DNA from: Nemertoderma westbladi | Lineage: Eukaryota > Animalia > Xenacoelomorpha | Assembly: GCA_032718475.1 (NCBI GenBank) | Contig: JAUCBJ010006674.1 | Span: 7,124 to 71,123 of the forward strand | Length of the DNA: 64,000 nucleotides | Direction: 5' to 3' | In this document: piece after piece, positions 35,600 to 57,422 of the stretch | Position numbering within the stretch: position 1 is the first letter of the stretch | How the letters are laid out: each line of letters starts with the position of its first letter | The notes under the pieces: model-generated | Seen by the model: only the letters and a program-made list of their open reading frames with translations | Told to the model about the DNA's origin: nothing | Database searches by the model: none | Translations under genes and position numbers: made by a program

Positions 35600-37260
35600 G
35601 GGGGGGGGGGGGGGGGGGGGTGGTACTAGCCTATCCAACCAGCAACAGCTCAGGCGATTTCCTTTTTCTTTTTCCCACAAAGTACTGTATATTTATTTTA
35701 CTTTTTATTCAATTAATTTAATTTGTATTTTTAGGATATGAAACTGGATAAAATCGCAATATTTTGTATTTTTTTGTAATTTTATTTTCTTGTATTTTAT
35801 CTTACTGTAGCTCATTTATTAGTTTATTTTTTAATTTTCTTCCTAATGATTTTTTCGATTTACTTTGTTTAATATCTACATCTAGCGTGTTCCAGACAAT
35901 GACACCGTTATATTTTAATGATTTCTGTCCTTGTAGTAGTCGGGTCCGTGGTACATAGTAGTTTTTTCTTGTTGTTGATCGTGTGTTGTAAGTATGTACA
36001 GTAGATGTTTGTTGAAACAACGAAGTGATAAAATTTTGTTTTTTGTTATTGTGGATTTCCCACATTAGTTTAGCTGTTTCAAGAAAATGCAGTTGTTCAA
36101 TCGGTAGTATATCTAATTGTTTGTAGAGTGGTGATGCGTGTTCCCTGTAGTGAGTGAAGGTAATAGCTCTGACTAGTTTATTTATTTTAATTTTAATAGG
36201 TTTCGTATGTGTAGATTGAGCGTTACCCCAGATCACTATATACCGTAATTAATGTAAGGTTGTATCAGTGAACAGTAAAGTAATTTTAATATACGTAGTG
36301 GTAGAGTGTGTCGGAGTTTAAAAAATATACCAGCTGATTTTGAGATTTTCTTCAAAACATAAGCACAATGATTTTTCCAAGATAACTTTCTGTCTATCCA
36401 AATTCCTAAAAATTTTGTTTCATTTACATTTTTTATTGGTTGATTACGTATTTTTATATTATTGTGTTTTGTTTCTTTTTTATTTGTAAAAAATAGATAC
36501 TCTGTTTTTTTAAGATTTAATGATAGTTGGTTGTCGGTTAGCCATAGATCAATTTTATGAAGTTCGGTATTTACAGTTTCAGTTAGTATTTCAAGGTCTT
36601 TGTGATTGTAAAGTAGGTTTGTATCGTCGGCAAATAAAGTTGAGTGAAGTGATGTACAGTTCGGTAAGTCGTTTATGTAAATTAAGAATAGTGTAGCGCT
36701 GAGTATAGCCCCCTGGGCTTTCGAAGGCTCGAAGGCTTTCTTAAGATCTATTGATATCAAACAGGCAGATTCTTGTAATTCTAGGATATTTTGTAATTTT
36801 TCGGTTACAGTCAGTATGGCATCTGTTGTTGTAGATTGTTTTCGAAATCCGTATTGGTATTGTGAGAGTATGGAGTACTTGTCTAGATAAGAGATGAGTT
36901 GGGAGTTGATTACGCGTTCAAAGAGTTTACTGAATACAGGTAATATTGATATGGGTCTGTAATTGTTTTTGTCAGTAGGGACGCCGGATTTAAAAACTGG
37001 GGTAATTTTAGCAGATTTAAGAGTGGATGGGAATGAACCGGTTTTAATAGAGAGATTTATCAGATATGTCAAGTGTGGTGCAATATCGTACGCTGCTAAT
37101 TTAACTAGAGTGATGGGGAAGCTGTCGTTAGTTGAACTTGAGTTATTGAGATCTAGTATGTTGTAAATAGTTTCAGTGTTAGAGGTTTCAATAAGTGAGA
37201 AGGAGTTTGGTTTTTTGTGGTTTATATAACGTATTGGGTTTCTGTTTGTTGTACATGCAC
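35600..37260 (-). mobile_element. 5'-truncated CR1/L2-group LINE with internal RT deletion
   Basis: NYRPISILPVFSKLFE, QYGFRKQSTT, DLKKAF joined almost directly to QGAILS..LFLIYINDL, LFADDTNL, KFLGIWID and a CR1/L2-type C-terminus (HTYNTR...WNTL); one frameshift at ~36236. Confidence 0.93.
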
Positions 37261-38239
37261 CACATAAGTCTGTAAGTGCTAACGCGGGATTTCCTTGGTA
37301 AAGTGACACCATACCAGTGATTTCTGAAAGTACCAATGTGCTAACTCAGTAACAGACTTTAACAACATTTAGCAACACCAATTCTTCACCACCCGCAAGA
37401 GGGCTTAAGTGTTCTAAAGTGCTAACTTACTAAAAACACCAATAACAATAGTAATATTAGCAAAGTTAGGAGTTTGAAGTGATGGTATCTGTAAATCTTG
37501 GAAGATAATGATTAGGTGTTTTTGTGTTGAATATTTCAAGACACCACACATCATAAAATGCTAACTCATTATTCGTTCTTTGGGATGTGAAAGGATATTG
37601 AATATATTATAATATTTAATATTTAATCATTTGTTTCAAAAATATCAATATTTATTTAGTTTCAACAACGTCAATAGAATCAAAATATTTATATTAAAAT
37701 TTATGTAACATTACAGAACATAGTTTTTCTAATGTTTCTTATAGTGTTATTGATTGTTTGAAAATCAAGATGTTCAGAATAAATGTAAATTACATTATTT
37801 GAACGTTACAAATTGGTTGGTAACATTATTTCAACGTTTCAAAATAATTATAAACTGAATTGGGGGGTGGGGGGGGGGGGGGGGGGGTGTACACACCAAA
37901 TTTTATACTACCAAGTTTTTGCTAATTTCATTTGTGAAAATGTTCTCAAACATATAAAATATGTTCAATTAAAATATTTTATAACGTTCTATATTTTTCA
38001 TTTTCAAAATAAAATAGAGAATCCTAAAAAAATGTTCTCCTTTTTAAACAATAGAACATACATTTCTGCATTTCCAATCGCTGAGTTTCTCAGGCTACCA
38101 AAGGGGGTCAGAACCTTAATGCGCATATAAGACAATGAATGCTTGTATTTATGGATGTATGTTACCACTATATGATTTCTGCTGATTGCAATTATTTATT
38201 TCTGAAACACATTGTCATCTATATTGTGATCTATGGTTG

Positions 38240-39642
38240 ATTAAAAAGCAATAAACACTATAAACGTAATAAATAGAATGCTGTGCCGGCTTGACGACAA
38301 AATTGAGCCACCACAACTCCCTACTGTATCACCCATGACATTTGCTAGATCATCCGAATCTTCAAGGCCAGTGTCCTTTAAGATGCGTCTCAAGAAAGTC
38401 ATGGGCTGTCCACCATGCTTATTCACTCCATGAGGCTACCAAAGAACAAGATTATGCACTGACTGATCCACACGGCGAAAGCAATGTCCTGCATAGCGGA
38501 GGCGGGTTTGTTCTAGTGTCAAGCCTGGGGGAACCAATGAGACACCTCCAATGTTATATAGTGTCTGGTTGGAGATGTGTGGATTGTACTTGACACAGTG
38601 AACCCGGCGTAGCATTCTTGTGAATGTGCCATCCAGAGATTTGGTATCCTCTGCAGTTAGAGCCCAGCATGGACTCCCATAGAGGAGTACTGGAACTACT
38701 GCTGCTCTAAATAATCGTACCTTAAGATTCCGATTAATTCTATGTGACTTCCAAATCCTGGAAAGCCTATTCAAGGCTGCCCATGCCTTTCCCTTGCGTA
38801 TTCAAAGGTCTCGCCTGACCTCCGGATCCATGAACCCTGGTGACAGAAGTCGTCCACATGCTCAAGCATACCATCCTTTGAGCTTATGCTCATCCGATCA
38901 GAGACTTGCTGATGACTTTCATAGTTAACTGTCAAAATTTTGGTCATTTTTGGAGTTAATAAAAAGACCAACACCAGAAGCAGCATGTTCTAATGAGCTG
39001 AGGAGCCGTTGGGCTCCCTCTAGTGATTCTGAGAGTACTCCTAAGTCATCAGCAAAGTCTAGATCAGTTAGGTACTTGGCAGGATTTCCTCGACTTCTGG
39101 AGCCAGTAGGTGGAGTTATCATCACCCCCATCATCATTATGATGATCTAGTGACATGCTTATAGTCAACCATAATTATGAACAAGAATGGCGCAAGTGTG
39201 TCTCCCTGGAGGACGCCCCATAACACTTAAAGTGGTTCTGTGTCACCGTCAGCAGTAGACACAAATGTTGTCGAACCATCGTATACTGATCTGATTGCTG
39301 CAATAATTGCCTTGAATAAGTCAACAAAGATAACAGCCAGATGCCTGTCTTTCTTTTTTGATCAATCTCTTCAATTATCCTTCTAAGTACCAAAATGGGC
39401 TCCATGGTCTCACGACCTTTAAGGAACCCATTCTGATTTCCAAGGAGCAGTCTCTCAATGGGATCCAGAGGGATCAATGGGATCTAGATAAGCTTTAAAC
39501 ACTCAGGTATTTTATAGACCTCAGGGGGACACCATCTACTCCACTACTGGCACGATTGGTTTTAATGCCCTTTGCAGCAGCCTTCACTTCTGCAAAGGAG
39601 ATATAGCCAATGGGAATATCTGGGAGTACAGACTCAGAACAC
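38240..39642 (-). mobile_element. RTE-clade LINE (RT to 3' end), abutting LTR copy A
   Basis: GVDGVPPEV, NQNGFLKGRET, LTDLDFADDL, LKVRLFRAAVVPVLLYGS, RLRYAGHCFRR across several frameshifts. Confidence 0.92.
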
Positions 39643-40877
39643 TGTAAAAGCTTCTGTGGGATATAACTGGCCCCTTTTGCTTCGCAATCCAGTTTCCCCC
39701 CAGGCGCTGGAATACTCTAAAAAGGTTCTCTAACTGTATATATATTCCCCTCGCCCGCAAGGTACCGTTACAGGTGTTTTAACGGACATAAAAGTCATTC
39801 TGCTATATACGTGTTTTGGCGGACATGGTAAGGCAAAAAACCTGTAATGCACCAACTACCTTTCACAGCTTAGCCGTGATGATTCATATTACGACATCTA
39901 ACAGCTGGTTGCTGACATGGAAACAGCCATTGGATGCATGGTTCTTTGTTTGGCTTGAGCCAATCAGAGCGATTTTTCCTGTCGACGTGTAGCTTTTCGG
40001 CCGATCATAAGGAGAGTGTTCAGTCTTACTGTTTTTACTTGATACTTTGTTGTTATTGCTGTCTAAGCCAGAAACACCGGCTTTTTGGGAAGAACTCTAG
40101 TAAAACTGCTTAGATTATAGAAAGTATAACTGTTACCGGCGGTGTTACCTCACTTAATTTAACTGCACTAATCATATTGTTTGTACTGCTATTTACCGTC
40201 AGTTATTAATTGTATCTATTTGTTGATGGAAATATTGCTCTTTGGAGAATACGGATAAATCACCCAAAATTCCCAATTTTCTTGATACACTACAGGTTAG
40301 AGAGGCGGGCTATATATAACAATTGCGATTTATATCAATGTGGTGTGTATTGAATCTAATGTTATTTAGTAGACACTACCTGAGTCAATTGCTGTTCTCT
40401 TTATGTGTGATCAAATATACTGACGGTCGGCAGAATAGTGTGCATGATTGTGAGTGTGATGTGACTGGTAACAAAGCATTTCCTAAAGAATGCGACTTAT
40501 ACTTTAATCATAAGCCTTATCGTTGCGTTTAGTATAAGTCCTAGCTCTGTTTAAATAGATAGAGCGCCACGTCCTAAAGGAACTGTTAATATTTCCCGAA
40601 AGTTAATAATATCTGTCAGAAATTACATATTAGCGATCAATCGAATAATACAGTAGGCTTACACTGCAACCTTACACTGCAATAATAAAATCTAAGCATC
40701 CGAATTCAGCCTCCCGGGTGTAGATCCATCGGGTGAATGATCGCGCATGGGCTGGCTTCGGCTAATGTTTTGTTTATTAGCATAAAATATTGTCGTATGC
40801 TAAAGGTGTGTTAATTAACTAAAAGACATATAAATTTTGGCAGGTTAAACTGCTAAAGGTCTTCAAAAGCGCGAACA
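39643..40877 (+). repeat. 5' LTR of copy A
   Basis: Direct repeat of 49955-51189 with 4 substitutions seen by eye; CCAAT at 39961, Inr-like TCAGT at ~40020, AATAAA at 40684. Confidence 0.97.
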
Positions 40878-41243
40878 GTAACAGTTACTTTGTATTGCAG
40901 TGTAGGCATTAAATACAGTTTAATACTGTTCTGTCGAACAGTAACAGTTATAATCTTATTGCAGTAGGCAATAGGGTTGCAAAATACCGTAGTGACTGGT
41001 AAAACTGAACCGGTGCTTCTGTAGGTCAGTAGGCCTAACTGTCATCACCGGTACCGGTACTGCTGTACAAGTACATTTAGTATTATTTCGATTGTGATCT
41101 ATTGTATATTGTAGGCTGCCAGGGGAATAGGGATTGATCACCCCTCATTCTTTTGTATAGTTTACTTATTTCTGTCGGTTTTATTTACTAGTAGGCTAAT
41201 ATTGAGCAGAAGGCGTGTGACCCTGCTCAGATTGTTCAGATAA

Positions 41244-41815
41244 TTGTAGGCTGAGCTGCTGTCTGACTGTTGTTGAGTTTGGAGAGATTGCGGTGTGTGT
41301 AGAGTTGGTCTGATAAAGTGCCGTTAGTAAGTTGGGGCAGCCATATGCTGAAGGTCAATCCCCTCTTAAAGAATAAGTCGTACTACCGTGTTAGAACGCA
41401 TACTAACTAACAGTTTCAGAATCTGCATATACTGTAGTTTATTTAGGCTTGATTGTAGTCTGTCAGTGTTTTAGCCTGTGTTTGTTTGTGTGGTCTGTTC
41501 AGGTACCGTAATAGTTATTACTCAAATATTTGTAGGCTGGATTGTTGTCTAGCTATTTTTAGGTCTGAAGGGATTGCTGCGTGTGTAGAGTTGGTCTGAT
41601 CAAGTGCCGTTAGTAAGTTGGGGCAGCCATAAGCGGTAAGGTCAATCCCCTCTTAAAGAGTAAGTCGTACTACCGTGTTAGAACGCATACTAACTAACAG
41701 TTTCAGAATCTGCACATACTGTAGTTTGTTTAGGCTTGATAGTAGTTTGCCAGCGTTTGGTTTGTATTTGTTTGAGTATTCTGTACGGGTAGCGTAATAT
41801 TTATTATTCAGAGTT
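41244..41815 (+). repeat. ~286-bp tandem duplication in the 5' leader of copy A
   Basis: gattgc...gtgtgtagagttggtctgat...aggcttgat begins at 41286 and again at 41572. Confidence 0.9.
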
Positions 41816-43135
41816 TATGCGATTATTCGCAACATTCATGTCCCCAAGTTTATTCCTACAGTAATTGTGCTTGTTATACATACCGTTATAGTTAAACTAA
41901 CCCCGGTACTACATCAGGGCTGCTCGGCGTAGGTAAAGACTGGAGATTTTGTGCTTCGGTCACTCCAGCAGATGCCGTGGTTCTTTTAACTGTTCAAGTA
42001 TATTTAACTACTGATTATTTGTTATACCGGTACTTGTACCTAATTTAGGGTTTAGTGTACAGTGCTTTCCGAAGTAATTAGTGTAGGCAGTATATTTGTG
42101 TTGTAAAGTGGTTGATAGGCACATTCGTTAGCTCTATTAGCTTCTGGGTAGGAACAATCCGTGATACATAACGTAGTACCTATAGCGATACGGTTATAGG
42201 TCGTCAGGCGGTGGTATTTTCCTATCTGGACAGTACAATATATTTACTACTACTTATTATTTCAAATACCGTAGTACCCTGTCCGTTGTAATACAGTAAT
42301 AACCAGAATTCTAACCCTTTGTTAGGCTGGTTTGTAGACTTCCTGTAAAATTACCCTAAAAATTTCGTACGTAATATTTTGTTGTGTTTAATTAGAGAAT
42401 TAATCTCACCCATATCGTAAGTAATTTGTAGTATTAAGTAACTTAGGTAAATTAGAATTATCAGTTTTAGTGTCAAATAAATAGCACTTCACTGAGAGGC
42501 GTTCAGCTTCTGTGTAGTGACTCCCCCAGAAATAATAACATTTATTTCAAATATTGACAAAAACCCATATAACGGGTATATAAATATTATAAATCAACTC
42601 AAACGATTTATAAATAGTAGGCCTGCCATACAACAACTAGGTCTCAATATCAGTTGGACTACTGCTTAAATAACGGTAGTAGAGTAAGTTAAAGTAACCA
42701 AGTAACCCTAAAAATATTCAGAAATTCAATTATTCTAAAAATAATTGACATACCGGTATTTACCATAGGCTTATTATATTTATCTCTATAAATTTGAGCT
42801 GAAATCATACCGGTACTCTGTAATTAATTCTAGTTCATAATTATACTTATATATAATATAGGTGTAAGCTGTCTACCGGTATTCACGATAGGCCTATTAT
42901 ATATTTATATATATTTGTGCTAAAAATTATATACCGGTACTCTGTGACAAATCTAGTCTGTAATAATACTTATATATATATTATAAGCATACCGGTATTC
43001 TAATATATTATATATATATCACGCTACACTGAGCAGCAGTATCGGTAATTAATTATTAGGCTAACAGTGATACTGAATTACTAGACTTACTTTAACTGTA
43101 TTTATAGCCGTAGGCATTCAACTGTGTAAACAAAC

Positions 43136-46100
43136 ATGTCAGATTCAACCAAATCACTGTCAGATAGTCTCTTAGAAAGTGTTAGAATGAGTATTAGACT
43201 TAGACAGCGTATTAAAAGGATCCGTGACCAAGATCCAAGTATAGAACATCCTAGATCCAAGTCTAAGTCACCTACTATTGTAAGAAAGGCCATCCCTACA
43301 GTAGTAGTGTCAGACCCTAGGCTAGTAGAACAACGTAGGTCTATCATCGGCACTCGGGCCCAAGTCAAGCGGGATCAAGAAGCAGCTGTCAAGCAGCAGC
43401 AACATCCTAGCCAAGAACCTAGTTCTCAGCGGCCCGATAGCTCCAGTAGTTCGGATACTGTTGAGCGGACGCCCGAACGCAGAGCGGAGATGGCGGATAC
43501 GGTTTATGATGAGCGGCCAACCTATGAAGAATCAACCGACGCCACTTCTTCTCAAGTGGAAAGCGAAGTGGAAAGCGAATTAACAGCAGCAGAGAAGCCG
43601 CGAACTAGAGACGCCATTGACATCTACCTATCCGACTATCAGCGATTCTTAGGAGACGAAGAGTTGAGGAGACGACTGTCTGGACTTTCCCCCAATAGTG
43701 AAGGAGCCAAGTTTGTGTTGGACGCAATAGATGTGGAAATGTTGGCAGCGAATAGAGCGGAAATTGATGAAAGAATCCGCATCGTTAGAGAATGGGAACA
43801 ACAGTTGAAGAAAAAACAGATAGAGGACAGAAAGACAGCAGCAGTAGCAGCGGCAGAGGCAAAAGCAGCAGCGGCAGAGGCAAAAGCAGCAGCGGCAATG
43901 GCAGTGGTCGAAGCGGAACGGAGGGCATCTGAAGAAAAAGTCCAACTAGAGTTGGAGAATATTCAAGAGAAGCACGATTACTTAAATAAACAGATAACGG
44001 CTAGTGATATGCAGCTGATAAGCCAGACTACTTCCAAGAGACAGGGATTTACATCCTCTGATGAAGGAGATACAACAGATACTGAAGGCAAAGGAAATAG
44101 ATCTCGTCTAAGCAGACGTGGAAGAACATCCCACCGTCATAAATTGCCTGATTTGCCTCCAGCTGTTAGAAGGCAACTAAATAACACCAACTTAGGTAGT
44201 ACAGAACCCATAGACCAGGTGGTTAAAATAGAAAGACTCCCTACAATAGTTGATGAGCCTGAAATAATTAGGCCTGTCGTTCCCAAAGTCACTTCTGTGT
44301 TAGAGACCCCTGTACTTCCAGAGCTTAACTCTAAATTCCCTTTACATAGTACTACACTGCCTGTACCCGGTGGAACAGTCCAAGAGAATATCCCTGTCCA
44401 GATAGCAGAGAGAGAAATCAATAATTTGTCTCCCGTCGTCCCGCGTCAGCCCGCTACTATGTTGGCGACTCCCGCTTCAGCGGTTGAGTGGGTGGAAGAG
44501 GGACGGCGGGGGATGAATCTCCTGCTGGGACAGATGCAGGAGACTGTCCACCAACTTAAGGGAACAGTGAGGGAAAGTAGAGCAGAGTTGCAAGAAGTGC
44601 AGCAAAGTATCGCACTAGAACGCGACAAATTAGTCAATATCCAAAAGGGCATACCAATACCCCCTGTAACATTGTGTCCACCTGTTAGGTCTGAAGTATT
44701 ACATGCGCAAGGTGTGGAGCCTACACGCATCTATACTGCTAGTGAAGTTGAAACTCCTATAGCAAACCCTATTAAGGGTGATTATAGACCTGTTATTAAT
44801 GATATTCCCTATAGACCTGATAATGATCCGAGAAATTTATATACCGATAATTCGATATTAAATAACACGATGGCCCAAGAAAGCTTTACGCGTCAGATGG
44901 CTAGAACAGAAGCCCGCCAAGCGGTCAAAGTAGGAGAGATCGTCAAATTCAATGGAGACGAGATGAAATGGTTACCTTTCAACGAATATTACAAAGACAG
45001 CATACAGAACTCTGTGCTATCTAACGGAGAGAAACTTAGGTTCCTCATCAAGTGCTTGGAAGGACCTCCCAAGTTAATGGCGTTAAAGTTTATTGGACAT
45101 CCAGATGGATTAAGACAAGTTTGGGATACATTAAACATCAGGTATGGTAACAAGGATAACATAGCTAAGTATTTGTATGCAAAATTAGTAGCCCCTCGAC
45201 ACTTCCTTAGTAGCGGGATTATAGAGTTTTCTGATGAGATTCAAGAGATCTGTAGACAACTGGACTGGTTAGGTAAGTCGCATGAATATCAGAGTTCCAT
45301 GGTTATTGGAGCCGTAGTCTCTACCTTACCAAAGGGCGGAGTATGTACACGCTGGGACAAGAAAGTGTTGTACATGAATGAACAACAACGACGAAGTCCT
45401 ACCATGGCTGATCTCATGTCCTTCTTAGATGGTGAGGTAAAACTACAACTCATCAAGCAGTCCAGAGAGAAAACATCGGAAAATAAGGTAAGTGAGAAAC
45501 CCGCTTCTAGGAGAAGAGTAACACCAGTGTGTTATACTGACGACGGCGAAAGCCAAGCTTCTCAAGAAGAGGACAGCGGGAAAGACACAGCAAAATCTTA
45601 CTATGACAAAAAGAACTATAAAGACGTAAGTAAATACAAGTCTCGAACCAGTGACAGGAGAGAACAGGTAACAACAACCCCTCCTACGTCTCCTAAGAGA
45701 ATTCACGGAAGAAAGCCCGAAGAAAGAACGAGAGTGCATAACGTTACCCAAGGTAAGGTGAGTAACATCAAACCAAAATGTGCGCTGTGCGACGGGCCCC
45801 ACTGTTTGAGTGCGTGTGCTGAATTTCTAAAGAAATCCCCTGTAGACAGACGTACAGTCCTGTGGAATAAGCGGTTATGCTATAATTGCCTCAGATCGGG
45901 ACACCAACGGCGAACCTGTTACTCCGACGTAAAGTGTGCAAAGTGTGGCGCGAAACATCACATCTTGTTACACAGTGAGTTCGAACGAGACAACCCGAGT
46001 CAGGTAAGTGAGCCCAAATCACATGTCCAATTCAGTGATGTGAACGACACTGACCAAAGTTCTGAGTGGGAAGGATTCTATACGGACGAATTCTCCGATG

Positions 46101-47212
46101 CCAACGAATCCTGTTATCTAATAAATACCGCAGTGTATCGAGCACTTACTTACGAAAAAGACATCAACGATGAGTTTCCCCAAACTACTTTCGCCAAACA
46201 ACCATCTTGGAAAGCTCCAGCTTCCAACGTAGGAATCAGAGAATTTCCTGTAGTTCAGGTAAGAGTTCACGGTCTTAACAAAAGCTACATAGTGAACGCC
46301 CTCCTGGACTCCGGCAGCACAGGAACATTCATCGATCAAGAACTAGCCGAAGATATCTTTGCTGGACAACCCAAGTTCCGGACTAAATTGAATATGTCAG
46401 GAATTATGCAGGTTTGGAAATCTACCCTAACGGCAGATTACTATGTAGGTGTGTTGTCCACCCCCCAGGATAAGTTAGGAACACAAGGTATAAGGTCAGT
46501 AAAAATGGTGGCTATAAAGAACTTCGCTACTACCCAAGCAGACCTTTATAATTGGGACGAGGATGAGAGCATCCAACATCTTAAGATACCTCGATTCCAG
46601 ACGGATTATCCTGGAGTGCAAATACTTATCGGCCAAAACGCGCACGAGGCGCTCGAGACATTGGAAAAACGACCTGCTCAACCGCAGCCACTACAAACCT
46701 ATGCGGTAAGAACTAGAGTAGGTTGGTACTTTACTGGCCCTTCCCGCAGAACTCTCGAAGAGAGACTACCACCAGAAAGAATATGCCAGATAAATGGTTG
46801 GGAAGTGGAGAGCAGTGAAGTGGACGAACTAACTGAGGGAACACCATACTCCTCAGATAATGACGATATTAACTCCAATGAAGATCAATGGAGACATCGC
46901 CCCGAGATGATTAATCTAGCCGACATCGCTTCCAGAGGAGCGACTCCTCAAGAACGGATAGATACTCCCGGCTGGTTAGGTGGACCCGACTCCCTAAGTA
47001 AAGAAGAAGATGAATGGCCTCCTCATCTTACCACGGCGGAGAGTAGACAGGCCAAGGGAGCGGAGAAAGTAACACGGCAACCCAATCACCCAGCTGGTCG
47101 TTTATGTTTACTGGAAAGAGACCAAAAACTGTCCGGAAACTATGGAAGGCAAGATACTCTTCCTACGACCACTTCCCTAATCCGACAAATATCTAGGGAC
47201 TCCATAACATAA
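43136..47212 (+). CDS. gag-pol: BEL/Pao Gag-protease polyprotein with in-frame loss of RT, most of RNase H and integrase
   Basis: Long coiled-coil N-terminus; DUF1759-like KFNGDEMKWLPF...EKLRFLIKCLEG; knuckles CALCDGPHCLSAC, CYNCLRSGHQRRTC, CAKCGAKHHILLH; protease ALLDSGS; RNase H tail WRH...NLADIASRG...WLGGP...WP; last part of integrase tail. No RT YxDD region and no integrase core. Confidence 0.93.
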   Translation: MSDSTKSLSDSLLESVRMSIRLRQRIKRIRDQDPSIEHPRSKSKSPTIVRKAIPTVVVSDPRLVEQRRSIIGTRAQVKRDQEAAVKQQQHPSQEPSSQRPDSSSSSDTVERTPERRAEMADTVYDERPTYEESTDATSSQVESEVESELTAAEKPRTRDAIDIYLSDYQRFLGDEELRRRLSGLSPNSEGAKFVLDAIDVEMLAANRAEIDERIRIVREWEQQLKKKQIEDRKTAAVAAAEAKAAAAEAKAAAAMAVVEAERRASEEKVQLELENIQEKHDYLNKQITASDMQLISQTTSKRQGFTSSDEGDTTDTEGKGNRSRLSRRGRTSHRHKLPDLPPAVRRQLNNTNLGSTEPIDQVVKIERLPTIVDEPEIIRPVVPKVTSVLETPVLPELNSKFPLHSTTLPVPGGTVQENIPVQIAEREINNLSPVVPRQPATMLATPASAVEWVEEGRRGMNLLLGQMQETVHQLKGTVRESRAELQEVQQSIALERDKLVNIQKGIPIPPVTLCPPVRSEVLHAQGVEPTRIYTASEVETPIANPIKGDYRPVINDIPYRPDNDPRNLYTDNSILNNTMAQESFTRQMARTEARQAVKVGEIVKFNGDEMKWLPFNEYYKDSIQNSVLSNGEKLRFLIKCLEGPPKLMALKFIGHPDGLRQVWDTLNIRYGNKDNIAKYLYAKLVAPRHFLSSGIIEFSDEIQEICRQLDWLGKSHEYQSSMVIGAVVSTLPKGGVCTRWDKKVLYMNEQQRRSPTMADLMSFLDGEVKLQLIKQSREKTSENKVSEKPASRRRVTPVCYTDDGESQASQEEDSGKDTAKSYYDKKNYKDVSKYKSRTSDRREQVTTTPPTSPKRIHGRKPEERTRVHNVTQGKVSNIKPKCALCDGPHCLSACAEFLKKSPVDRRTVLWNKRLCYNCLRSGHQRRTCYSDVKCAKCGAKHHILLHSEFERDNPSQVSEPKSHVQFSDVNDTDQSSEWEGFYTDEFSDANESCYLINTAVYRALTYEKDINDEFPQTTFAKQPSWKAPASNVGIREFPVVQVRVHGLNKSYIVNALLDSGSTGTFIDQELAEDIFAGQPKFRTKLNMSGIMQVWKSTLTADYYVGVLSTPQDKLGTQGIRSVKMVAIKNFATTQADLYNWDEDESIQHLKIPRFQTDYPGVQILIGQNAHEALETLEKRPAQPQPLQTYAVRTRVGWYFTGPSRRTLEERLPPERICQINGWEVESSEVDELTEGTPYSSDNDDINSNEDQWRHRPEMINLADIASRGATPQERIDTPGWLGGPDSLSKEEDEWPPHLTTAESRQAKGAEKVTRQPNHPAGRLCLLERDQKLSGNYGRQDTLPTTTSLIRQISRDSIT

Positions 47213-47754
47213 TAACATATGGAGTGGGTGTGTGACTATATCATTTTATATTTGTTTTTATTTTATATTTATGTATGTATTATTACGTAATTTTATTATA
47301 ATCGTTTTCTTTAATTTTATTTAGTAGAATTAGCGATTATTTAGTAAATTAGTGCAATATATTAGTGTTTATTACGTACTTAATTACTTATAATATATTT
47401 AGTGCGACGGCAAGAAATAATTATTTTTCTCTTTCCTTACTGTCCGTATTATATTATAAATGCGAGACTATAGTAAGATGACATGTCAGTACTTCTTAAA
47501 GTACAATAAAGCCACTACTATATTTAAGTATTATTGGTAGGCAGAGTATTAGGAATGCAAAGTTCAGATCCTCGTGTCTCGGCTAAACCAAGCTCTGGGT
47601 AGACCTTGGAAACGACTTGCCTCTTCACACTGACATTGCTTCGTGCGATATTGCTCTTCTACCTTATAACAAATAATACATATAGTAGCGTGATGTCCCT
47701 CTAACAGTAGCGTAAAACGCAAATAAAGCTGTTAAACCTTTTGACCATCTGTAA

Positions 47755-48030
47755 TTCTAGTCGATTAAGATATCGTGGCACCCACCGATATACTTGAAAG
47801 ACAAATTCTAGAATCAGTGGTTAACGTCCCCAGACAAGTTCTGGAATAAATCGGTGCCCATCCTAAATATTAATTTAATATTTATTAAAATCTGTAAAAT
47901 CCCGATCCTTTAAAATTTCTAGTCAATTAAGATATCGCAGTATTTACCGATATTCTTAGAAGGACTATTTTATAGAATTAAGGATCCTAAGTCCCCAGAT
48001 ATGCTCTGGAATAAAATTTGTGTCAATTTT
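47755..48030 (+). repeat. Two diverged ~162-bp repeats in the inter-ORF spacer
   Basis: ttctagtc(g/a)attaagatatcg...ccgatat...gtccccaga...ctggaataaa at 47755 and 47917; also present in copies B and D. Confidence 0.8.
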
Positions 48031-48646
48031 AACATCAAATAATAAAATTCACGGGAATAAATTTAAATTCATATTTTTAAATGAATTTCATAAATTGTCA
48101 TTTTGTACAATTTATAACATTCCCAAAATTCCAGTAATTAATAGATCATGGGAGCGGAGATTCATATTGAGTGTACTAGAGTGTGAGAATCTCCAACATA
48201 TAGTCAATAGCCGATAAAATTTATAAAATCATGCATAAAGAGGATATTGACAACTAAAGAATTACTATTAAATAACATCCCAGATCTGTATGCATGAGAA
48301 TTACCCTAATTCTACCGCTAGCTTTCCATAATGTCACCATGGCAACAACCACGCTAGAATTAGAAGCAAGTTAAAGGAACAATAAAAGGCTTGCCCCATT
48401 GCGTAGCATAAGAGTATACATAGCGCACTATTAGTATCCAAGGATACATAGTAATAACGTGACATTCTGGAAGACACTGACTAACGGACAAATGGCATGC
48501 ATGTGTGCAGTAAGTAATGATTGTATGGAATTTGTGCGTTTATAGGTGAATGATACTACTAAAGTGTGTTTACAGTAGCTAATCGCAATTGTAAAGTAGC
48601 CCTAACTCTACCGAGATAGCCTCAAGTGGAATCAAGCCTTTGGGAC

Positions 48647-48789
48647 GGACAGTGGTGGGACTTGTGTCGATTATCGTTGTCGTGCTGTTGCTACATGTTG
48701 GCGCAAACACCGCGACAACGGTACATCGGCGCTGAGAAACCCACTGTCCGGGGGCAAAAGTCTAGTAGGCAGCGACGCCCGCTTGCCTA
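48647..48789 (+). promoter_or_regulatory. Conserved structured RNA element upstream of ORF2 (IRES-like candidate)
   Basis: Nested stems with compensatory changes among copies A, B (32177-32325) and D (62984-63134); ends 43 nt before the ATG. Function inferred. Confidence 0.6.
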
Positions 48790-48832
48790 AAATATTAGCT
48801 CATATTGATATCAATAAACTCAGATAGCAGAT

Positions 48833-49876
48833 ATGACGGAATTGATAGAAGATGACCTTGATATTAGAGAGCGATATACTCTACCTTTACAAGCGTTTGT
48901 GGATAGCTTGATACGCGGTGAAGCCGATCCGACTATTACGGAGGACGATGGTCGTTATATCGAACCGCTGATGTCCCAGGAACAACTTACGCGTGAATTG
49001 GACTATCGAAAATTAACCGCTCGCTATACGCATCGTAATGGTACGTATATGGACTTCCTAACTACCGGCCATCCTATCGATTTACATGATACGGACGATG
49101 TATACACCGAAAGGGAAATGGTTCTATTTAAATATCATACCCAGCGGAGTCGTAACGATAAACCGAGAATAGATCACGAAAATTATATTCGTTACATCAG
49201 AGCTTGGGAAGCGAACGCTGATTTACATTGTGATTCACGCCATCGCTATTATCCTGGACGCGCTTACGAAGGAGTTTATGCGTTCCATCCATATTTGTTT
49301 GCCTCCGTCGAGCAGAAATCGCGCCTATCAAGTTATGAACTATTGAAGCGCGTTGGAGAATGTATTTCAACCAAATATGTACGCAAATTCCTCAGGAGCA
49401 TTAATCCGAGTGACATCAATTCGTATAACTTAATAAACTTTATCCGTCAAGATCCGGCCTATGGAGACTTATTTGTCAACTCACACCCTGAGTTACAGGA
49501 AGTATATCGACGGCCTTACGAGTACAGAGCCCGCGAACGCGAGTTGGAAAGAACCATTAAACCAAGGAAGTTTCTAACTGCCTATGGTCCACCCACGGCC
49601 CTCGTTCAGACCACTCGTAAAGGACCCGTAAGAGCGGCTGTCTTGAAACGAGCTCTCAAAGCCGTTAGACCCCTCTCCCCGGACGTTGATGTCAATCAAC
49701 CCGGTACTTCGACCGGCGGATATACCGATCGCAATCCCATACCTTCTGATGCAATCATATTGCACCCTTCACCCAGGAGTTATAGCCCTCCTCGTAAAGT
49801 GGCTCGCCCCAAAGAGAAAAGGACTCTTGCTAGCTTTAAAAAACTGCGTAAACGCCGTCCGCGCAAGAAAGACTAA
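48833..49876 (+). CDS. ORF2 of copy A: in-frame internal deletion derivative (347 aa) of the 1417-aa exonuclease ORF
   Basis: First ~120 aa and last ~228 aa align with the ends of ORF 58683-62936; junction at HENYI-R-YIRAWEAN. Confidence 0.9.
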   Translation: MTELIEDDLDIRERYTLPLQAFVDSLIRGEADPTITEDDGRYIEPLMSQEQLTRELDYRKLTARYTHRNGTYMDFLTTGHPIDLHDTDDVYTEREMVLFKYHTQRSRNDKPRIDHENYIRYIRAWEANADLHCDSRHRYYPGRAYEGVYAFHPYLFASVEQKSRLSSYELLKRVGECISTKYVRKFLRSINPSDINSYNLINFIRQDPAYGDLFVNSHPELQEVYRRPYEYRARERELERTIKPRKFLTAYGPPTALVQTTRKGPVRAAVLKRALKAVRPLSPDVDVNQPGTSTGGYTDRNPIPSDAIILHPSPRSYSPPRKVARPKEKRTLASFKKLRKRRPRKKD

Positions 49877-49954: not shown

Positions 49955-51189
49955 TGTAAAAGCTTCTGTGGGATCTAACTGGCCCCTTTTGCTTCGCAAT
50001 CCAGTTTCCCCCCAGGCGCTGGAATACTCTAAAAAGGTTCTCTAACTGTATATATATTCCCCTCGCCCGCAAGGTACCGTTACAGGTGTTTTAACGGACA
50101 TAAAAGTCATTCTGCTATATACGTGTTTTGGCGGACATGGTAAGGCAAAAAACCTGTAATGTGCCAACTACCTTTCACAGCTTAGCCGTGATGATTCATA
50201 TTACGACATCTAACAGCTGGTTGCTGACATGGAAACAGCCATTGGATGCATGGTTCTTTGTTTGGCTTGAGCCAATCAGAGCGATTTTTCCTGTCGACGT
50301 GTAGCTTTTCGGCCGATCATAAGGAGAGTGTTCAGTCTTACTGTTTTTACTTGATACTTTGTTGTTATTGCTGTCTAAGCCAGAAACACCGGCTTTTTGG
50401 GAAGAACTCTAGTAAAACTGCTTAGATTATAGAAAGTATAACTGTTACCGGCGGTGTTACCTCACTTAATTTAACTGCACTAATCATATTGTTTGTACTG
50501 CTATTTACCGTCAGTTATTAATTGTATCTATTTGTTGATGGAAATATTGCTCTTTGGAGAATACGGATAAATCACCCAAAATTCCCAATTTTCTTGATAC
50601 ACTACAGGTTAGAGAGGCGGGCTATATATAACAATTGCGATTTATATCAATGTGGTGTGTATTGAATCTAATGTTATTTAGTAGACACTACCTGAGTCAA
50701 TTGCTGTTCTCTTTATGTGTGATCAAATATACTGACGGTCGGCAGAATAGTGTGCATGATTGTGAGTGTGATGTGACTGGTAACAAAGCATTTCCTAAAG
50801 AATGCGACTTATACTTTAATCATAAGCCTTATCGTTGCGTTTAGTATAAGTCCTAGCTCTGTTTAAATAGATAGAGCGCCACGTCCTAAAGGAACTGTTA
50901 ATATTCCCCGAAAGTTAATAATATCTGTCAGAAATTACATATTAGCGATCAATCGAATAATACAGTAGGCTTACACTGCAACCTTACACTGCAATAATAA
51001 AATCTAAGCATCCGAATTCAGCCTCCCGGGTGTAGATCCATCGGGTGAATGATCGCGCATGGGCTGGCTTCGGCTAATGTTTTGTTTATTAGCATAAAAT
51101 ATTGTCGTATGCTAAAGGTGTGTTAATTAACTAAAAGACATATAAATTTTGGCAGGTTAAACTGCTAAAGGTCTTCAAAAGCGCGAACA
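49955..51189 (+). repeat. 3' LTR of copy A
   Basis: Direct repeat of 39643-40877, followed by the TSD GAACAC. Confidence 0.97.
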
Positions 51190-53199
51190 GAACACTTTTA
51201 CTTCTTTAAAGGTATCAGGCGATACCCTGTAATTGAATTAAGACACAGCATTCCGGGACGTGGCTTAATGGTTTATGTATGTATTTACAGAGGTTTAAAG
51301 TTTTGACCTCGAAAAGACCAAGAATAGCAGCAGTGTGCAATAATGGGTAAGAAATTGGTGACACATTTTCAAAATACTTGTAGCAATTTACGTTATAGCA
51401 TTATATGTAAAAAATAAAATTTGAGATTGCACGAAATTTGACATACAGAATGACCTCTCTATTTTCTGGAAAAGGAAACTTATTGCAAGGATTAAGGATT
51501 TAGAATAATATATAATTATGAGAATAAATTAATTAATGGTTGTGGTTATGTGCATCCATGAAATCCATGAACTAGTTGCAAAGACATAGACGTTTAATAT
51601 ATGAATTTAATAGGCCTAATGTGAGCACTTTATGCTTTCTGTTGGCCGGTATTATTCATTTCAGAAACTCATAATCACCTCTTGTGATCTCGGCTTGATT
51701 AATAATCAATTTATTTCAATTTTAGTTATAAAACGCTAACATCTGGTCTGGCTTGCTATGCAATAATTATACAACAAAATTAGCCTTAAAGAGCTAACAT
51801 TTAGAATATGTCTTATGGAGAAACTCTATAGTGCTAACAGTTAGCACTTTACCTTTTTCAATAATTCTGAATCTGGTCGCTAGGGGGCAGTTGTTAAAAT
51901 TTGTTGCTATTTAATTTTTTTTGTAATTCATCTACATCTTTGAGTCAGGTTTGTTGGGAAAAACGAGATTTCGAGACATCTGCTAAAATTGAATGGGATA
52001 TCCAATAGAACAAACGCCATTTACATGGCTACGTTTGTTTTCGTGCTGTGGTCCCTTTCTGGCACCCATCTCCAGTATTTTTCGTGCGAAAATTATAAAA
52101 GTTTTTATGGCTCGCTAAAATTAATTTATTTGAGGTATATAGCGGTTTTTTGGACTCTGATCTAGATTATAGAACTCAAATATAACATTCGAGAAAATTT
52201 TTTGTAATTTTGAATGTTCCCTCTGGGGCACGAAAAAACAAGTAGTGGAAATATGATAATGAAAACTCACCACAAAATCAAATTGATTTTATGACTATAC
52301 AGTTTTTTTGGGATGCTGATCACGAATACGATACTGAAATATAACGTACATTGTTGATTAGGGCATTTTTGGATATGTGTCAATGTGCGGCTCGAAAAAT
52401 ACAATAAGTAGCACAAATTTGATGATCAAAAATCATTACCGAATCAACCTCATTGTTAGATATTATGGGTTTTCTGGCACGCTGATCACGAATATGACTC
52501 GTCAAAATATCGGATTATCCAAATAGATTTTTGCCGTTTGAAATTTCATCCTACTTGTCTCTTACGTCCCACCAGACAAAAACTAAAAATTATAGTTACG
52601 TTGCCACGAATGATTTTTAATAAGTTGTATCGTGCCGTATCGTATCGATCATCGGCTTTGAAAACCAGATTAGCGTCGGAATTACCAAACCAAAAGCAAT
52701 ATTAAACAGTTTGTAATTTTTGCTACTTGTACTTTTCGTTCTGGGGCACCAAAATGGCACCAAAAATGATGTTTGCATTTTAAAAAAATTCTAGCTAGTA
52801 AAAAAACAGTAGCTACAAAAAAAAATATCTAGTAATGTTCTAGAACATTCACCAATATCATAAAAAGTACTAAAGAACACTAAAATGTGACAGGTAAAAA
52901 AATGACAGGGGGTGTCGACAGGGCGGAGTAGGCCAAGTACCAATAACAGTTATATATTAGAACTGTGTTTCCAATGTAATTGCATTCTAGAAACTCATTT
53001 GTCCGTTAATCATTACTTGCTCACAAATAATATACTAGTATCATGTAATTAGAAGCTAATTAATAAATAATTATTTAAAAGTAACAATTAAAACCGAATC
53101 TCACTTCATTAACAACAATTACCTCTTTCTACAGTGGCATAACTTATCATCCCAATCGTTTATTTAAACATATATATTTAAGTACCGGTAGTTATTCTC

Positions 53200-54699
53200 A
53201 TGATGGGAGATCAACCTGGCCCTTCCAGAAAACAATCTTCACTGAAGCGACATCTCCCTTGTGCATCAGATAGTGAGAGCGACAACGACTTAGGACATAA
53301 ACGTTATATCCCCGGTGGTGATAGCGATGATGAAGTCATTGAGATCTCCAAAGAACCGCCAGATAACGAAGGGTCAACATCAATCCAATGCCGTGATTGG
53401 GCAGCGCTCCCACACGAACTTATTTTTAAATTGTTCAGCTATTTCCCAGAATGCGATCGGTTGTCAGCCGGCGGAACTTGTCACAAATGGAATGAGGCCC
53501 AGAAAGATGCGGGGCTTTGGAGAACGAGAGATGTTACCATCAGTGGAGAACGGCATCACGATAAGAAAGAGATTGAAGCAATTAGACAATATGGAGTTCA
53601 TATGGAAAAAGTTGAAATCCGTTGCAATGGGAGACTAAGCAATAGACAACAGATATTATGGCACGTCAGCCAATCAGTGGGTCATCTTAAGGTATCCCAG
53701 CTAAAACAATTCAGTCTATTCGGTCTATTAGGGGGCTTTCAAGGGATGGCTTCCCTCGGTATCTATGACACAACAATATCGCTGTTCTATCAGCATTTAA
53801 TTGAATTCTTCCGATCACAGAAAGAGTTAGAAGACGTGACACTAATAGATTTGCAAGTAAAGCCTTTAATTGACGGTGTTCGAATAATAGAAAGTTTGGT
53901 AAGACACAACCGCGGATCTTTAAGGAAGATCAAAATCGATGAATTAATTCATCCATCTGCCGCATCTACTGCGAGTCCCATGTCATCTGCTATGGGACCG
54001 CTCACTTCATTGAAGGCGTTGACGAACCTGGATATCAATTATAACTACTTGAATACAGATATATTAGAAAGAATTCTGACTAACAGTCCCCATCTAATAT
54101 TATTGGTACTCCGCCTCTGCCTGACTGGATCTGATAATGTTCTACCTGTTGCTGATAATAACAACAGCCCGTGGAGAAAAGCCAACCCCGAGCTCTCGGT
54201 TCATATGCTGTTCGACTTCGAGACAGTTGACGTTCATTCGCTGATTCGCTTGATAAAAGGACGACCTCCTCTGACGAAGTTCGAATTCTTTGCAGCTTGG
54301 ATGGAAACAATCGACGGCTTATCTATACTATTCCGCTATCTAGGTGATCACATGGACCAATGTCTGAAAGAGTTGGTAATGAGGTGCGGACAGGATGAAG
54401 AAATACGTGTTGACTTCGTTTCCATGGTAAGAGATTGTAAGAAGCTAGAGAGCATCACAATTACGGACATGTCTCTCAAAACGGAAGTTGTAACTGATAT
54501 CTGTGAGCTGAAGTTCCAGCAAGAAATAATTCCAGAATTAAAGAAGTGTCACATCGCCTTCGACCCCTTCGAGGGTGCGGATAATGGTGTTGAATTGAGT
54601 ATCCTGAACCGTCAATGGAATGGTAAGATAAAAGCTGGCGGAATTGATTTCCGTTTCAATAAGTTCGGAGATCCTAGGGAGATGGTCACTGTCGGTTAA
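53200..54699 (+). CDS. F-box/LRR-repeat protein, single coding exon
   Basis: F-box motif WAALPHELIFKLFSYFPECDRLSAGGTCHKWNEA...LWR, followed by degenerate LRRs (LKQFSL, LEDVTL, LRKIKI, LTNLDI, LKELVM, LESITI); 499 aa uninterrupted; candidate 5'UTR splice acceptor ctctttctacag ending at 53133. Confidence 0.9.
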   Translation: MMGDQPGPSRKQSSLKRHLPCASDSESDNDLGHKRYIPGGDSDDEVIEISKEPPDNEGSTSIQCRDWAALPHELIFKLFSYFPECDRLSAGGTCHKWNEAQKDAGLWRTRDVTISGERHHDKKEIEAIRQYGVHMEKVEIRCNGRLSNRQQILWHVSQSVGHLKVSQLKQFSLFGLLGGFQGMASLGIYDTTISLFYQHLIEFFRSQKELEDVTLIDLQVKPLIDGVRIIESLVRHNRGSLRKIKIDELIHPSAASTASPMSSAMGPLTSLKALTNLDINYNYLNTDILERILTNSPHLILLVLRLCLTGSDNVLPVADNNNSPWRKANPELSVHMLFDFETVDVHSLIRLIKGRPPLTKFEFFAAWMETIDGLSILFRYLGDHMDQCLKELVMRCGQDEEIRVDFVSMVRDCKKLESITITDMSLKTEVVTDICELKFQQEIIPELKKCHIAFDPFEGADNGVELSILNRQWNGKIKAGGIDFRFNKFGDPREMVTVG

Positions 54700-54915
54700 T
54701 TAGAAGATACTGGAGCTGAATGTCTTGGATGGTTAAATACAAGACGCTCACTAATTCACGCTCGCCGATTAGCTAATAATTATTAATCGTGTTTATATAT
54801 GGTATATTCTCACTATATTTAATATGTTTATTAATATACAGTAACAAGTAACTACAGTATAAATAGAGTCCCGTAATATTTTAATTTTGATACAGCACCA
54901 CCCCCCCCCCCCCCC

Positions 54916-55560
54916 TGTTCGCGCTTTCAGACCTTTAGCAGTTTAACCTGCCAATCTTAAATGTCCTTTTGATTATGAATCGACTTTAGCCCTTACCAAT
55001 TACCTGGTGTACTGAAGTTACATCTGCCGAAGCCAGTCCGTGCGCGGCGTATGACCCACGGTGTGGGAGACTGGATTCGGGTTCTTTAGGAAGTATTGCG
55101 GTGTAGGCTACTTTGTATTATTCGATTGATCGCTACTATATAATCTCTGACAACTATATTTACTTTCGGGGAAATATTAACAGTTCCTTTAGGACGTGGC
55201 GCTTTAAGTATAAAAACAGAGTTATGACTTATACTAATCACAACTAGATGGCCACAGAGTTTCGTAAATAGCGCAATCTTTAGGAGATGCTTTATTAACC
55301 TTCACACGACTTCACACGACTTTACACTACTTCACACTAAATTGCCGACCGTCACTGAATTTGATCATATATAAGGAGGATTGCAACTGACACACGTAGG
55401 GATTATGAAATAGCATTTAATTCACACAAAACCACTATAATTTAAGTCGCAGTTGCTACCGGTAGACTCTTTCTCCGCTTACCTCAGTAATCAATAAGAT
55501 TGAGGGGTTTATGATTATTTATCGGTATTCTGCAAATATAACATCCATTAATATATACAG
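54916..55560 (-). mobile_element. Copy C: partial, more diverged LTR (3' half) of the same BEL/Pao family
   Basis: Starts tgttcgcgctttcagaccttt and contains the invariant 31-mer; similarity fades near 55560. Confidence 0.88.
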
Positions 55561-56539
55561 CAATTCGTCACCTTCAAGGCAGAACCCCCTAAGTCGATTT
55601 TTTTCGATTTTCATGTTTTTGAATTTTTGGGTAATTCGATATCGGCTTTTTCGTCTGGCAGAACCCCGAAGCTTTTCTACCAGCCATTTTTGAGTTAAAA
55701 GCCAAAGACAGTTCCCCGTAACTTATGCCCACTTCGAGGCAGAACCCCACAAGTCAATAATTGGCTTGCAAAACACCGTACAGTAAATTCAAGTATATGA
55801 AATTCAGTCCACCTGGCAAAACCCCTTAAATCAGAAATAACAACCTGTAAAACCCCTTAAATCAGAAACAATAGCCTGGCAAAACCCCGTAATTTATCAT
55901 TTATATACTGGTTTGTATTGCGGCCGGACACAAATATTCATGAGGGAGGCAAACATTATTGAAGGACACAAAACATTAATAGGGGTCCATGGTTGCCAAT
56001 GGATATTAATGTGAGCGTTGGTGATGCTTGCCATCAGACGATCAGATATTAAGTGATTAACTGGAAAAAATACTACCATGGGAACGTGAGCTTCGTTCAA
56101 AGTACCGCCGTTTTGTATACATTCCATCGTCCTAATTAGATGGAAATTAATTGAAAGCGACGTTCGGTTACGTTGTTCAGCTGCCTGTTTTGCTCTGTTA
56201 TACTCCCATATTTTCAATTTACCTCCTACCACCACCATTCATGTGACCCCCCCCCTCCCCCATTCCTGTCTCCCCCTCATGTTCATCATTTTTTTACTCC
56301 TACTCCTTCCCTTTTTAGTAACAACATCGTTTATTGTTTTGGTTAGAAAAACCATCTCTGTAACCTGAAACTTTCCTTCAATCGGCAATAACATAGTTTA
56401 TTGGTTTGATCAGATTGATATGTTATTATTTATTGTTGTTATTTTATTGCTTGACAGTAATGATAATTGAAATACTGTAATATATTGTATGTGTATGGGT
56501 GGTAACATGATTCATACTAAGTGCGAAAGGCGATAGTGC

Positions 56540-56995
56540 CCATGATTAATGTTTGTGCCCTTGATTGATATCTGTCCCTCGTTTATTGTTTGTGTCCCTC
56601 ATTAATGTTTGTGTATCTCATTAATGTTTGTGTCCCTCAGTAATGTTTGTGTCCCTCATTAATGTTTGTGTATCTCATTAATGTTAGTGTCCCTCATTAA
56701 TGTTTGTGTCCCTCATTAATGTTTGTGTATCTCATTAATATTTGTGTCCCTCAGTAATGTTTGTGTCCCTCATTAATGTTTGTGAATCTCATTAATGTTA
56801 GTGTCCCTCATTAATGTTTGTGTCCCTCATTAATGTTTGTGTCCTATATGAATGTTTATGTCCCACATTAATGTTTGTGTCCTACATCAATGTTTATGTC
56901 CCACATTAATGTTTGTCCCCCTGATTAATGTTTGTCCCACACTAATGTTTGTGGCGCTGATAAATATCTGTCCCTCATTTAATGTTTGTGTCCAA
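56540..56995. repeat. 19-bp minisatellite (cctcattaatgtttgtgtc)n, probably within a DNA element starting ~55575
   Basis: More than 20 copies visible; upstream ggca(g/a)aacccc motifs at ~60-80-bp spacing between 55578 and 55890; inverse units at ~55925-55985. Confidence 0.9.
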
Positions 56996-57422
56996 GTTGC
57001 TATAAGTTACTCTAGGTTGCCGGACGTTTTGGACAATTTGGTCAGCAACTAGCAACTTAATTTGAGTAACATTAACTTTTAGTCTCCGTTATATGAGGCA
57101 TCTTTTACAGCAACAAACTTCGCGTTTACTTAGAGCAACTTGATCGGCAACCAGACATGTTCACTAAGTTGCTGATAGAGTTGCTCAAAATGTTGCCACG
57201 TACTGTAGAAAAAACAGGTCTTTAATTATTCGTCATGACGTATTGTAAGTGAACTTTACTTTAACTTTAACAGCTGTAACCCTGTAGCTAGACTTTGTTC
57301 TTACTGTAGAGTACCACCCATGGCTATATTTTGTACTTAAGAGTTCCGCTTTCTTTAATCTCAATTTTGTTCTTATAGTTCTGCATTTGGCTACATTTTG
57401 TTCAATTTGTATTGATACATGA

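Follow-up and report, generated by a model that had tools for sequence, protein, structure and literature searches.

Within the window (the whole analyzed stretch of 64,000 nucleotides), three copies of a BEL/Pao LTR retrotransposon, here called A, B, and D, carry a long RNA hairpin and a small second hairpin directly upstream of an extra ORF (ORF2) or of its remnant. It is highly likely that this sense-strand RNA structure is real and has been selected. The reading that I favor, with a probability of about 40%, is that the long hairpin (the rod) acts in cis on the genomic RNA as an export- or packaging-type signal to which a protein binds, and that ORF2 is made by splicing.

In copy A, the rod occupies positions 48646–48750 of the plus strand and has about 40 base pairs, a 3×3 internal loop, single-base bulges, and many G-U pairs, with a 28-bp near-duplex above the internal loop. 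The small hairpin (48766–48789, plus strand) has 9 bp, one bulge, and the loop ACGCC. The corresponding structures lie on the minus strand at 62984–63130 in copy D (rod 63023–63130, small hairpin 62984–63007) and at 32177–32321 in copy B (rod 32214–32321, small hairpin 32177–32200). Each of the three copies is predicted to form a single rod of about 40 bp without branches, followed by the 9-bp hairpin. A sequence-only reading of this region had quoted several stems, all of which were found in their places in A, D, and B, although the inner stem of B contains one U-U mismatch. Its term "multi-stem" overstated the complexity, since a middle helix that had not been listed connects the outer and inner stems, which lie coaxially in a single unbranched rod. 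The structure also forms the GC-rich island that had been described (58% G+C, versus 15–44% in 150-nt windows from more upstream parts of the spacer), with a CpG observed/expected ratio of 1.18, and the small hairpin ends 43 nt before the ATG at 48833, as had been stated. In contrast, the suggested pairing of the hairpin loop with an upstream GGCG is unsupported. The GGCG in the 3′ arm of the rod is predicted to be fully paired (probability of being unpaired 0.0), and the apical GGCG, unpaired with a probability of 0.46 in A and of 0.08 in the other two copies, has no variable position; situated at the distal tip of a 40-bp helix, it would also be badly placed to meet the loop.

The folding z-scores are −6.68 for A, −6.98 for D, and −4.49 for B, and none of 200 shuffled sequences was as stable in any copy. 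The rod region is the most stable of 191 windows scanned along element A. The fold is much more stable on the sense strand: the sense and antisense energies are −57.1 and −42.5 kcal/mol in A, and −59.3/−32.5 and −59.6/−32.6 kcal/mol in the other two copies, an advantage of 15–27 kcal/mol. A comparison with Rfam, which had been proposed in the sequence-only reading, gave no family match: there were no matches at E ≤ 10 in A, and the three in D's spacer were at chance level and away from the rod. The covariance-model search revealed no fourth copy within the window. The small-hairpin pattern had no match in viral contigs or in metagenome contigs, and scans of related loci yielded 2, 69, and 279 pattern matches, of which none was confirmed. 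HDV-like and hammerhead ribozyme cores and an xrRNA were rejected solely by eye, from their consensus features. A palindromic dimerization loop was dismissed as well, the 6-nt palindrome being confined to A. A repeat of the arms of the small hairpin at 47539/47616 does not fold (z +0.85).

Are the pairs under selection? Of 146 cells across the three copies, 97.9% are paired; the three exceptions are U-C, U-U, and C-C, and none is A-C. G-U occurs in one or more copies at 12 of the 49 pairs. Four of the 49 are changed on both sides, a figure matched by 16 of 500 column shuffles, and the five measures of this control (7, 16, 16, 83, and 12 of 500) are marginal. The A-U to G-C double change noticed earlier is genuine; it lies at alignment columns 36/86 and is specific to B. 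Thus, the pair-preserving changes are present as had been claimed, but with an alignment of only three copies, and with a structure derived from the same three sequences, the covariation is suggestive rather than of R-scape grade. In a less circular test, the fold of one copy was taken as the reference and the substitutions of the other copies were scored for broken pairs: 0–3 pairs were broken versus 3.0–8.4 expected (p 0.0005–0.022 in six non-independent comparisons). Random mutants remained as stable in 0, 0, 3, and 2 of 500 cases. The small hairpin shows a single C-G to U-G change, and eight of its nine pairs are invariant. The sequence identity of the rod is no higher than that of the surrounding spacer, indicating that what is conserved outside the base and the tip is its shape rather than its sequence. 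Thus, the pair-keeping substitutions and the strand asymmetry bear out the earlier claim of a selected sense-strand RNA structure.

A sequencing run (X1), whose RNA nature is only a guess, covers the whole stretch and contains the deletion joint of copy B, and thus may well be DNA. Twelve substitutions are listed for it: ten at paired positions of the rod, one in a bulge, and one in the flank. All ten paired-position variants are compatible with pairing, two of them only as a double change. Most of the variants repeat the differences of B or A; two are new, and one of these gives U-G at the site of copy B's U-U mismatch.

The host element of the rod is a BEL/Pao (Belpaoviridae) LTR retrotransposon. 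Element A lies between a 5′ LTR (39643–40877, plus strand, TG...CA, 1235 bp) and a 3′ LTR (49955–51189, plus strand, 1235 bp). The LTR identity of 99.5% and the 6-bp target duplication indicate a recent insertion. Its gag-protease ORF (43136–47212, plus strand, 1358 aa) has a DUF1759 match (E 7e-12), three Cys-His motifs, and an Asp_protease_2 match below the Pfam cut-off (E 0.009), and ends in short pol remnants; neither a reverse transcriptase (RT) nor an integrase core is present in this ORF. Copy B retains an integrase-tail remnant (33783–34058, minus strand) with an above-cut-off DUF5641 match (E 2.8e-6). A DUF1759 gag with Cys-His motifs, a protease, and a DUF5641 integrase tail are marks of BEL/Pao. 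RT is missing in A and B; copy D is on the minus strand with its 5′ part beyond the window edge, so that for D the RT is outside the window, and A is the only copy with gag inside it. The tRNA search found no tRNA gene, and the sequence following the 5′ LTR of A shows no canonical TGG primer-binding site. The leader of element A (40878–43135, plus strand) is unusually long (2.26 kb) and contains a 287-nt duplication at 41236–41810 as well as smaller repeats near 42750–43020. A more divergent LTR fragment of the same family (about 70%) is found at 54915–55541 on the minus strand, and it clusters with the three elements within 35 kb.

ORF2 is full-length in copy D (58683–62936, minus strand), where it encodes 1417 aa with an exonuclease-like domain, CCHC-type zinc knuckles, and a basic C-terminal tail. 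In copy A (48833–49876, plus strand, 347 aa), an in-frame internal deletion relative to D has removed the exonuclease-like and zinc-knuckle regions; the idea that this deletion is a trace of splicing was rejected because its edges are not GT-AG. The remnant in copy B (30990–32133, minus strand) has decayed by large deletions and frameshifts and has no ATG. The start-codon context that had been called conserved has its ATG at 48833 in A, whereas B has GTG at the ORF2 start. When the differences between A and D in ORF2 were sorted by codon position, they amounted to 5–12%, 5–6%, and 24–37% at positions 1, 2, and 3, indicating that ORF2 was under protein-level selection.

The ORF2 product is probably a DEDDy 3′–5′ exonuclease with zinc knuckles, as judged by distant sequence likeness. 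Pfam gave nothing significant in the ORF2 of D. In the Atlas, the whole ORF2 (0.86) and residues 690–1000 (0.92) fall near DNA_pol_A_exo1 clusters (the PF01612 set); 25 of the 30 matches of residues 690–1000 are in this set, and the family is found on 50% of the members of the listed cluster. An exhaustive search of 1.84 billion representatives found two distant relatives (E 4.2e-7 and 8.2e-4), P0001 and P0002, on ENA contigs of about 9–11 kb. The exonuclease-like block and the cysteine cluster are present in both, and the ExoI D-x-E motif was aligned across D, P0001, and P0002 in one alignment and unaligned in another. The profile search with ORF2 found retroviral nucleocapsid knuckles (E 0.0017) and EXD2 at only E 1.2. 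The exonuclease-like region by itself, compared with PDB sequences, returned nothing meaningful, the other protein-homologue searches gave no match, none of five proteins of the window was present in the protein collection, and the AlphaFold models of ORF2 were unusable (pLDDT 30.4 and 29.2).

Copy B shows that the rod can stand beside a dead ORF2. About three quarters of ORF2 has been lost in A and in B, while no large piece of the spacer has been lost. Between B and D, 166 of 671 aligned bases of ORF2 differ (24.7%), with 21%, 16.5%, and 37% at codon positions 1, 2, and 3, and 11 of the 14 indels in B's ORF2 are frameshifting. In the upstream spacer, B-specific columns number 21 of 846. Among B's own changes at paired positions of the rod, four of five keep the pair, including the double change. 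The pairing kept in the ORF2-dead copy suggests that the rod is independent of ORF2 translation. On the other hand, copy B may be a recombinant which has recently acquired its intact spacer from a copy with a live ORF2, since the third-position excess (37%) looks as if the lineage of B's ORF2 were as distant from D as A is. Such a recombination would weaken the timing argument.

The tip of the rod carries a motif, GCUAC-N(1-4)-GUUGGCG (48690–48703 on the plus strand in A), that is kept in all three rods and can form a GCUA/UGGC stem with a loop of 5–6 nt. The same motif, 14–15 nt long, is present at 44453–44467, inside a second long hairpin in gag (44424–44518, plus strand, about codons 431–460). 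The motif was spotted by eye and after the fact; it has four matches in the window (the three rods and gag) and none in each of 100 shuffles. The gag hairpin is the second most stable window of element A and is more stable than 1000 of 1000 synonymous resamplings, with sense and antisense energies of −56.1 and −36.2. A fold of this hairpin with the motif on top is 2.7 kcal/mol less stable than the optimum. Covariance models did not recognize the gag hairpin as a whole; it was absent in one search, and in another only the motif was found (8.5 bits, E 6.9). The 10-mer AGATAGCAGA occurs only at 44400 and 48822, each adjoining a rod.

The non-coding spacer between the pol remnant and ORF2 (47213–48832, plus strand) is 1.62 kb long and has no large deletion in A or B. 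Its last part is an A+T-rich linker (48790–48832, plus strand), which contains a branch-point-like CTCAT at −34, −34, and −36 from the start codon in A, D, and B, and a tandem TAG/CAG, but no pyrimidine tract. The two AGs of this tandem, ending at 48827 and 48830, are candidate acceptors. Two further candidates on the plus strand, TTTATAG ending at 48545 and TTTACAG ending at 48575, look better and are upstream of the rod; in all, 25 YAGs are conserved in the three copies. A short uORF (48550–48582, plus strand) has 10 codons in A and D and 14 in B; its start is kept in all three copies, while its stop is lost in B, and in A the stop is 63 nt upstream of the rod. Elsewhere in the spacer, a second hairpin module occurs in tandem at 47755–47850 and 47917–48015 (plus strand); the two units are 76% identical, with z-scores of −4.5 for the first and −1.5 for the second, and the tip pairs of the module covary in five copies across A, B, and D. 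In addition, about 130 nt are identical between A (about 47527–47658, plus strand) and B (near 33330–33465, minus strand), where the spacer is otherwise about 85% identical. This stretch, whose 5′ 100 nt show no unusual folding, is either a highly constrained element or the result of a recent exchange between copies.

Six putative splice donors with the consensus AG/GTRAG are clustered on the plus strand within about 1 kb of gag-pro (45273–46263), with the G of GT at 45273, 45488, 45753, 45758, 46004, and 46259. Only 0.68 were expected, and none of 5000 synonymous shuffles had as many. No such donor was found on the antisense strand of gag-pro or in the ORF2 of D. Joined to either AG of the conserved TAGCAG, two of the donors would keep the ORF2 frame, whereas the other four are predicted to meet a stop almost at once at any candidate acceptor; among the six, that at 46004 lies directly 3′ of the zinc knuckles of gag and is predicted to give a Gag-only product. 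The cluster thus predicts spliced RNAs for Gag only and for Gag-ORF2, possibly a device for balancing Gag and Pol in a BEL/Pao element with a single ORF. In run X1, which may well be DNA and has no weight either way, none of the six listed joints splices into the ORF2 start.

How would the structure work? In the reading favored here, the sense RNA of the element would fold into the long G-U-rich rod and the small hairpin, and the rod would bind a protein in cis as an export or packaging signal of the unspliced genomic RNA. ORF2 would be translated from a spliced mRNA without need for the rod; splicing to the TAG/CAG before the ATG would place the rod in an intron. The tip motif would be the protein site, bound by Gag, by a host export factor, or by ORF2 itself, and the step served may be export, packaging, or stability. 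The G-U pairs in the absence of A-C, the sense asymmetry, the rod of copy B, the donor excess, and the repeated tip are counted for it. The acceptor at the ATG, lacking a pyrimidine tract, is counted against it, and if the acceptors upstream of the rod are used, the rod stays in the ORF2 leader. A stricter form resembles the Rev/RRE circuit: a spliced Gag-ORF2 protein, combining an exonuclease fold, zinc knuckles, and an arginine/lysine-rich tail, would bind the GCUAC...GUUGGCG tips on the gag and spacer rods and so license the export or packaging of the genomic RNA, with ORF2-dead copies replicating in trans. As a whole, this circuit is improbable.

The sequence-only reading rightly listed splicing and packaging as alternatives, but its headline, an IRES, is not favored here. 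By that account, the rod and the small hairpin recruit ribosomes on genomic or gag-spliced bicistronic RNA, and translation starts at the ATG 43 nt downstream. The location directly upstream of a conserved, codon-constrained ORF2 and the A+U-rich, weakly structured landing stretch would suit it. If the upstream acceptors are used, a rod of 57–59 kcal/mol in the leader would block scanning, and the four phase-0 gag donors meet a stop within 0–10 codons at these acceptors, which would yield a bicistronic RNA. An in-frame Met also follows the gag hairpin, and IRESs inside gag are reportedly known in HIV. However, the rod is unbranched, a pseudoknot is unsupported, Rfam is silent, the pairing is kept in B despite the loss of ORF2 and its ATG, and the splicing route makes an IRES unnecessary. 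I therefore regard an IRES as unlikely. The fold resembles neither of the IRES classes with which it was compared. A dicistrovirus IGR IRES has two or three pseudoknots and a non-AUG start abutting PKI, and in a type IV (HCV-like) IRES domain III is branched and a pseudoknot adjoins the AUG. In comparison, membership of the former was rejected on the rod-and-hairpin fold, the paired or invariant GGCG, the AUG 43 nt downstream, and the Rfam result, and membership of the latter on the unbranched fold of all three copies. What the structure shares with these IRESs and, as far as the accessible text tells, with those of Drosophila gypsy, which has two IRESs plus a spliced env (PMC4276936), is that about 150 nt of folded RNA directly precede a second ORF. 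If the rod is an IRES, it is an unusually simple one.

A shunt or reinitiation on an mRNA spliced to 48545, with ribosomes translating the 10-codon uORF, skipping the rod, and landing in the A+U-rich linker, has a small chance of being correct. The preserved uORF start speaks for it, and a short uORF, a stable long stem, and a UA-rich, weakly structured stretch before the main ORF make up the pararetrovirus and foamy-virus configuration, so far as the source is accessible (PMC5902531). By the same partial account, the uORF stop is 7 and 8 nt before the stem in RTBV and RTSV, not 63 nt as in A, and the unit here lies inside the element, not at a known 5′ end; in B, moreover, the uORF stop is lost and the rod outlives ORF2. 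An equally small chance is given to a splicing regulator, in which the rod, between two acceptor clusters, sets the balance of unspliced, Gag-only, and Gag-ORF2 RNAs. Candidate acceptors do flank the rod in all copies, the gag donor excess is strong, the survival of the rod in B is compatible, and plant Ty1/Copia elements are described, in the part of the source available, as splicing to make excess Gag (PMC5580714). On the other hand, the rod covers neither an acceptor nor the branch-like CTCAT, and the shared tip motif is left unexplained. It is very unlikely that the rod is a small-RNA precursor for Drosha/Dicer or a dsRNA decoy (ADAR substrate), perhaps tied to the exonuclease as a silencing suppressor. 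The unbranched near-duplex of 28 bp would fit. Nevertheless, cleavage would destroy the genomic RNA, and pre-miRNAs have a conserved mature arm or seed and a variable loop, whereas here both arms vary, including would-be seed positions, and the tip is conserved, so that membership of the pre-miRNAs was rejected. The least credible reading is that there is no RNA function at all, the rod being a neutrally drifting old inverted repeat or a G+C-rich DNA promoter for an ORF2 transcript starting in the linker. The rod identity, no higher than that of the rest of the spacer, agrees with drift, and the CpG ratio and a TATATAA at −42 in D agree with a promoter. Yet the TATA match is absent at that place in A and B; G-U pairs without A-C, the strand asymmetry, and the pair-preserving substitutions argue for RNA; and the DNA palindrome at about 17100–17290 is perfectly Watson-Crick, unlike the rod.

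The export or packaging reading has counterparts among retroelements. The MusD MTE, the MPMV CTE, and the HIV-1 RRE are structured cis elements for unspliced RNA, and, as far as the accessible text describes them, they resemble the rod in being structured cis RNAs of 100–400 nt with long irregular helices in the 3′ part of the element (PMC4588558, PMC10309623). Neither these elements nor Rfam families match the rod in sequence. The rod is also simpler than what is accessible on these elements: it is unbranched, is hosted by BEL/Pao, and is upstream of an extra ORF rather than beside the 3′ LTR, and its export role is a prediction. In Cer1, a Ty3/gypsy element of C. elegans, the 3′ ORF (CERV) is spliced to gag exons and drives the export of genomic RNA; Cer1 belongs to a different superfamily from the rod's host, and the accessible part of the source names no cis RNA element for it and gives CERV no obvious homology outside Caenorhabditis (PMC10309623), whereas ORF2 resembles a DEDDy exonuclease with zinc knuckles. 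If ORF2 binds the rod, this would add a second parallel to Rev among invertebrates, CERV being the first. Should the rod be neither an ORF2 target nor an IRES, it would be a structured cis element of the kind that is ordinary in transposons.

ORF2 itself has a parallel in the bdelloid LTR retrotransposons Juno and Vesta, whose ORF3 has a DEDDy-type exonuclease; the accessible text also describes the third ORFs of LTR elements as typically spliced (PMC5408684). Like that ORF3, ORF2 is a non-env accessory ORF located 3′ of pol with a DEDDy-type domain. Unlike it, so far as the partial source allows comparison, ORF2 is carried by BEL/Pao and has 1417 aa with a CCHC cluster and a basic tail; the likeness is one of description only. 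In the literature searched (few subscription papers, no Repbase, and no supplements), neither an RNA element nor a DEDDy ORF was described in BEL/Pao, and nothing was found on BEL/Pao RNA export, packaging, Gag:Pol balance, or extra-gene expression, or on secondary structure in non-autonomous elements. Thus, the rod is apparently a structured RNA element undescribed so far. With its 105 nt, the 24 nt of the small hairpin, and a tip motif that is repeated, it is a compact candidate for a cis element, accompanied by a predicted set of splice junctions, and ORF2 is probably a DEDDy-exonuclease accessory gene in BEL/Pao, the rotifer cases being in other LTR lineages.

Several other features are present in the window. 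The perfect palindrome has arms of about 90 bp and is MITE- or foldback-like. Fragments of non-LTR retrotransposon reverse transcriptases are found at 28833–29728 (plus strand), 35802–37345, 38436–38801, and 34059–34313 (all minus strand), among which RVT_1 was confirmed only for 36236–37345. Minisatellite arrays lie at 11258–11645, 13035–13615, 17638–17825, and 56527–57001, with units of 22, 31, 21, and 19 nt, respectively. Between the elements, a single open frame at 53182–54699 (plus strand) encodes an F-box protein of 505 aa with a weak LRR-like region, which is probably a host gene.
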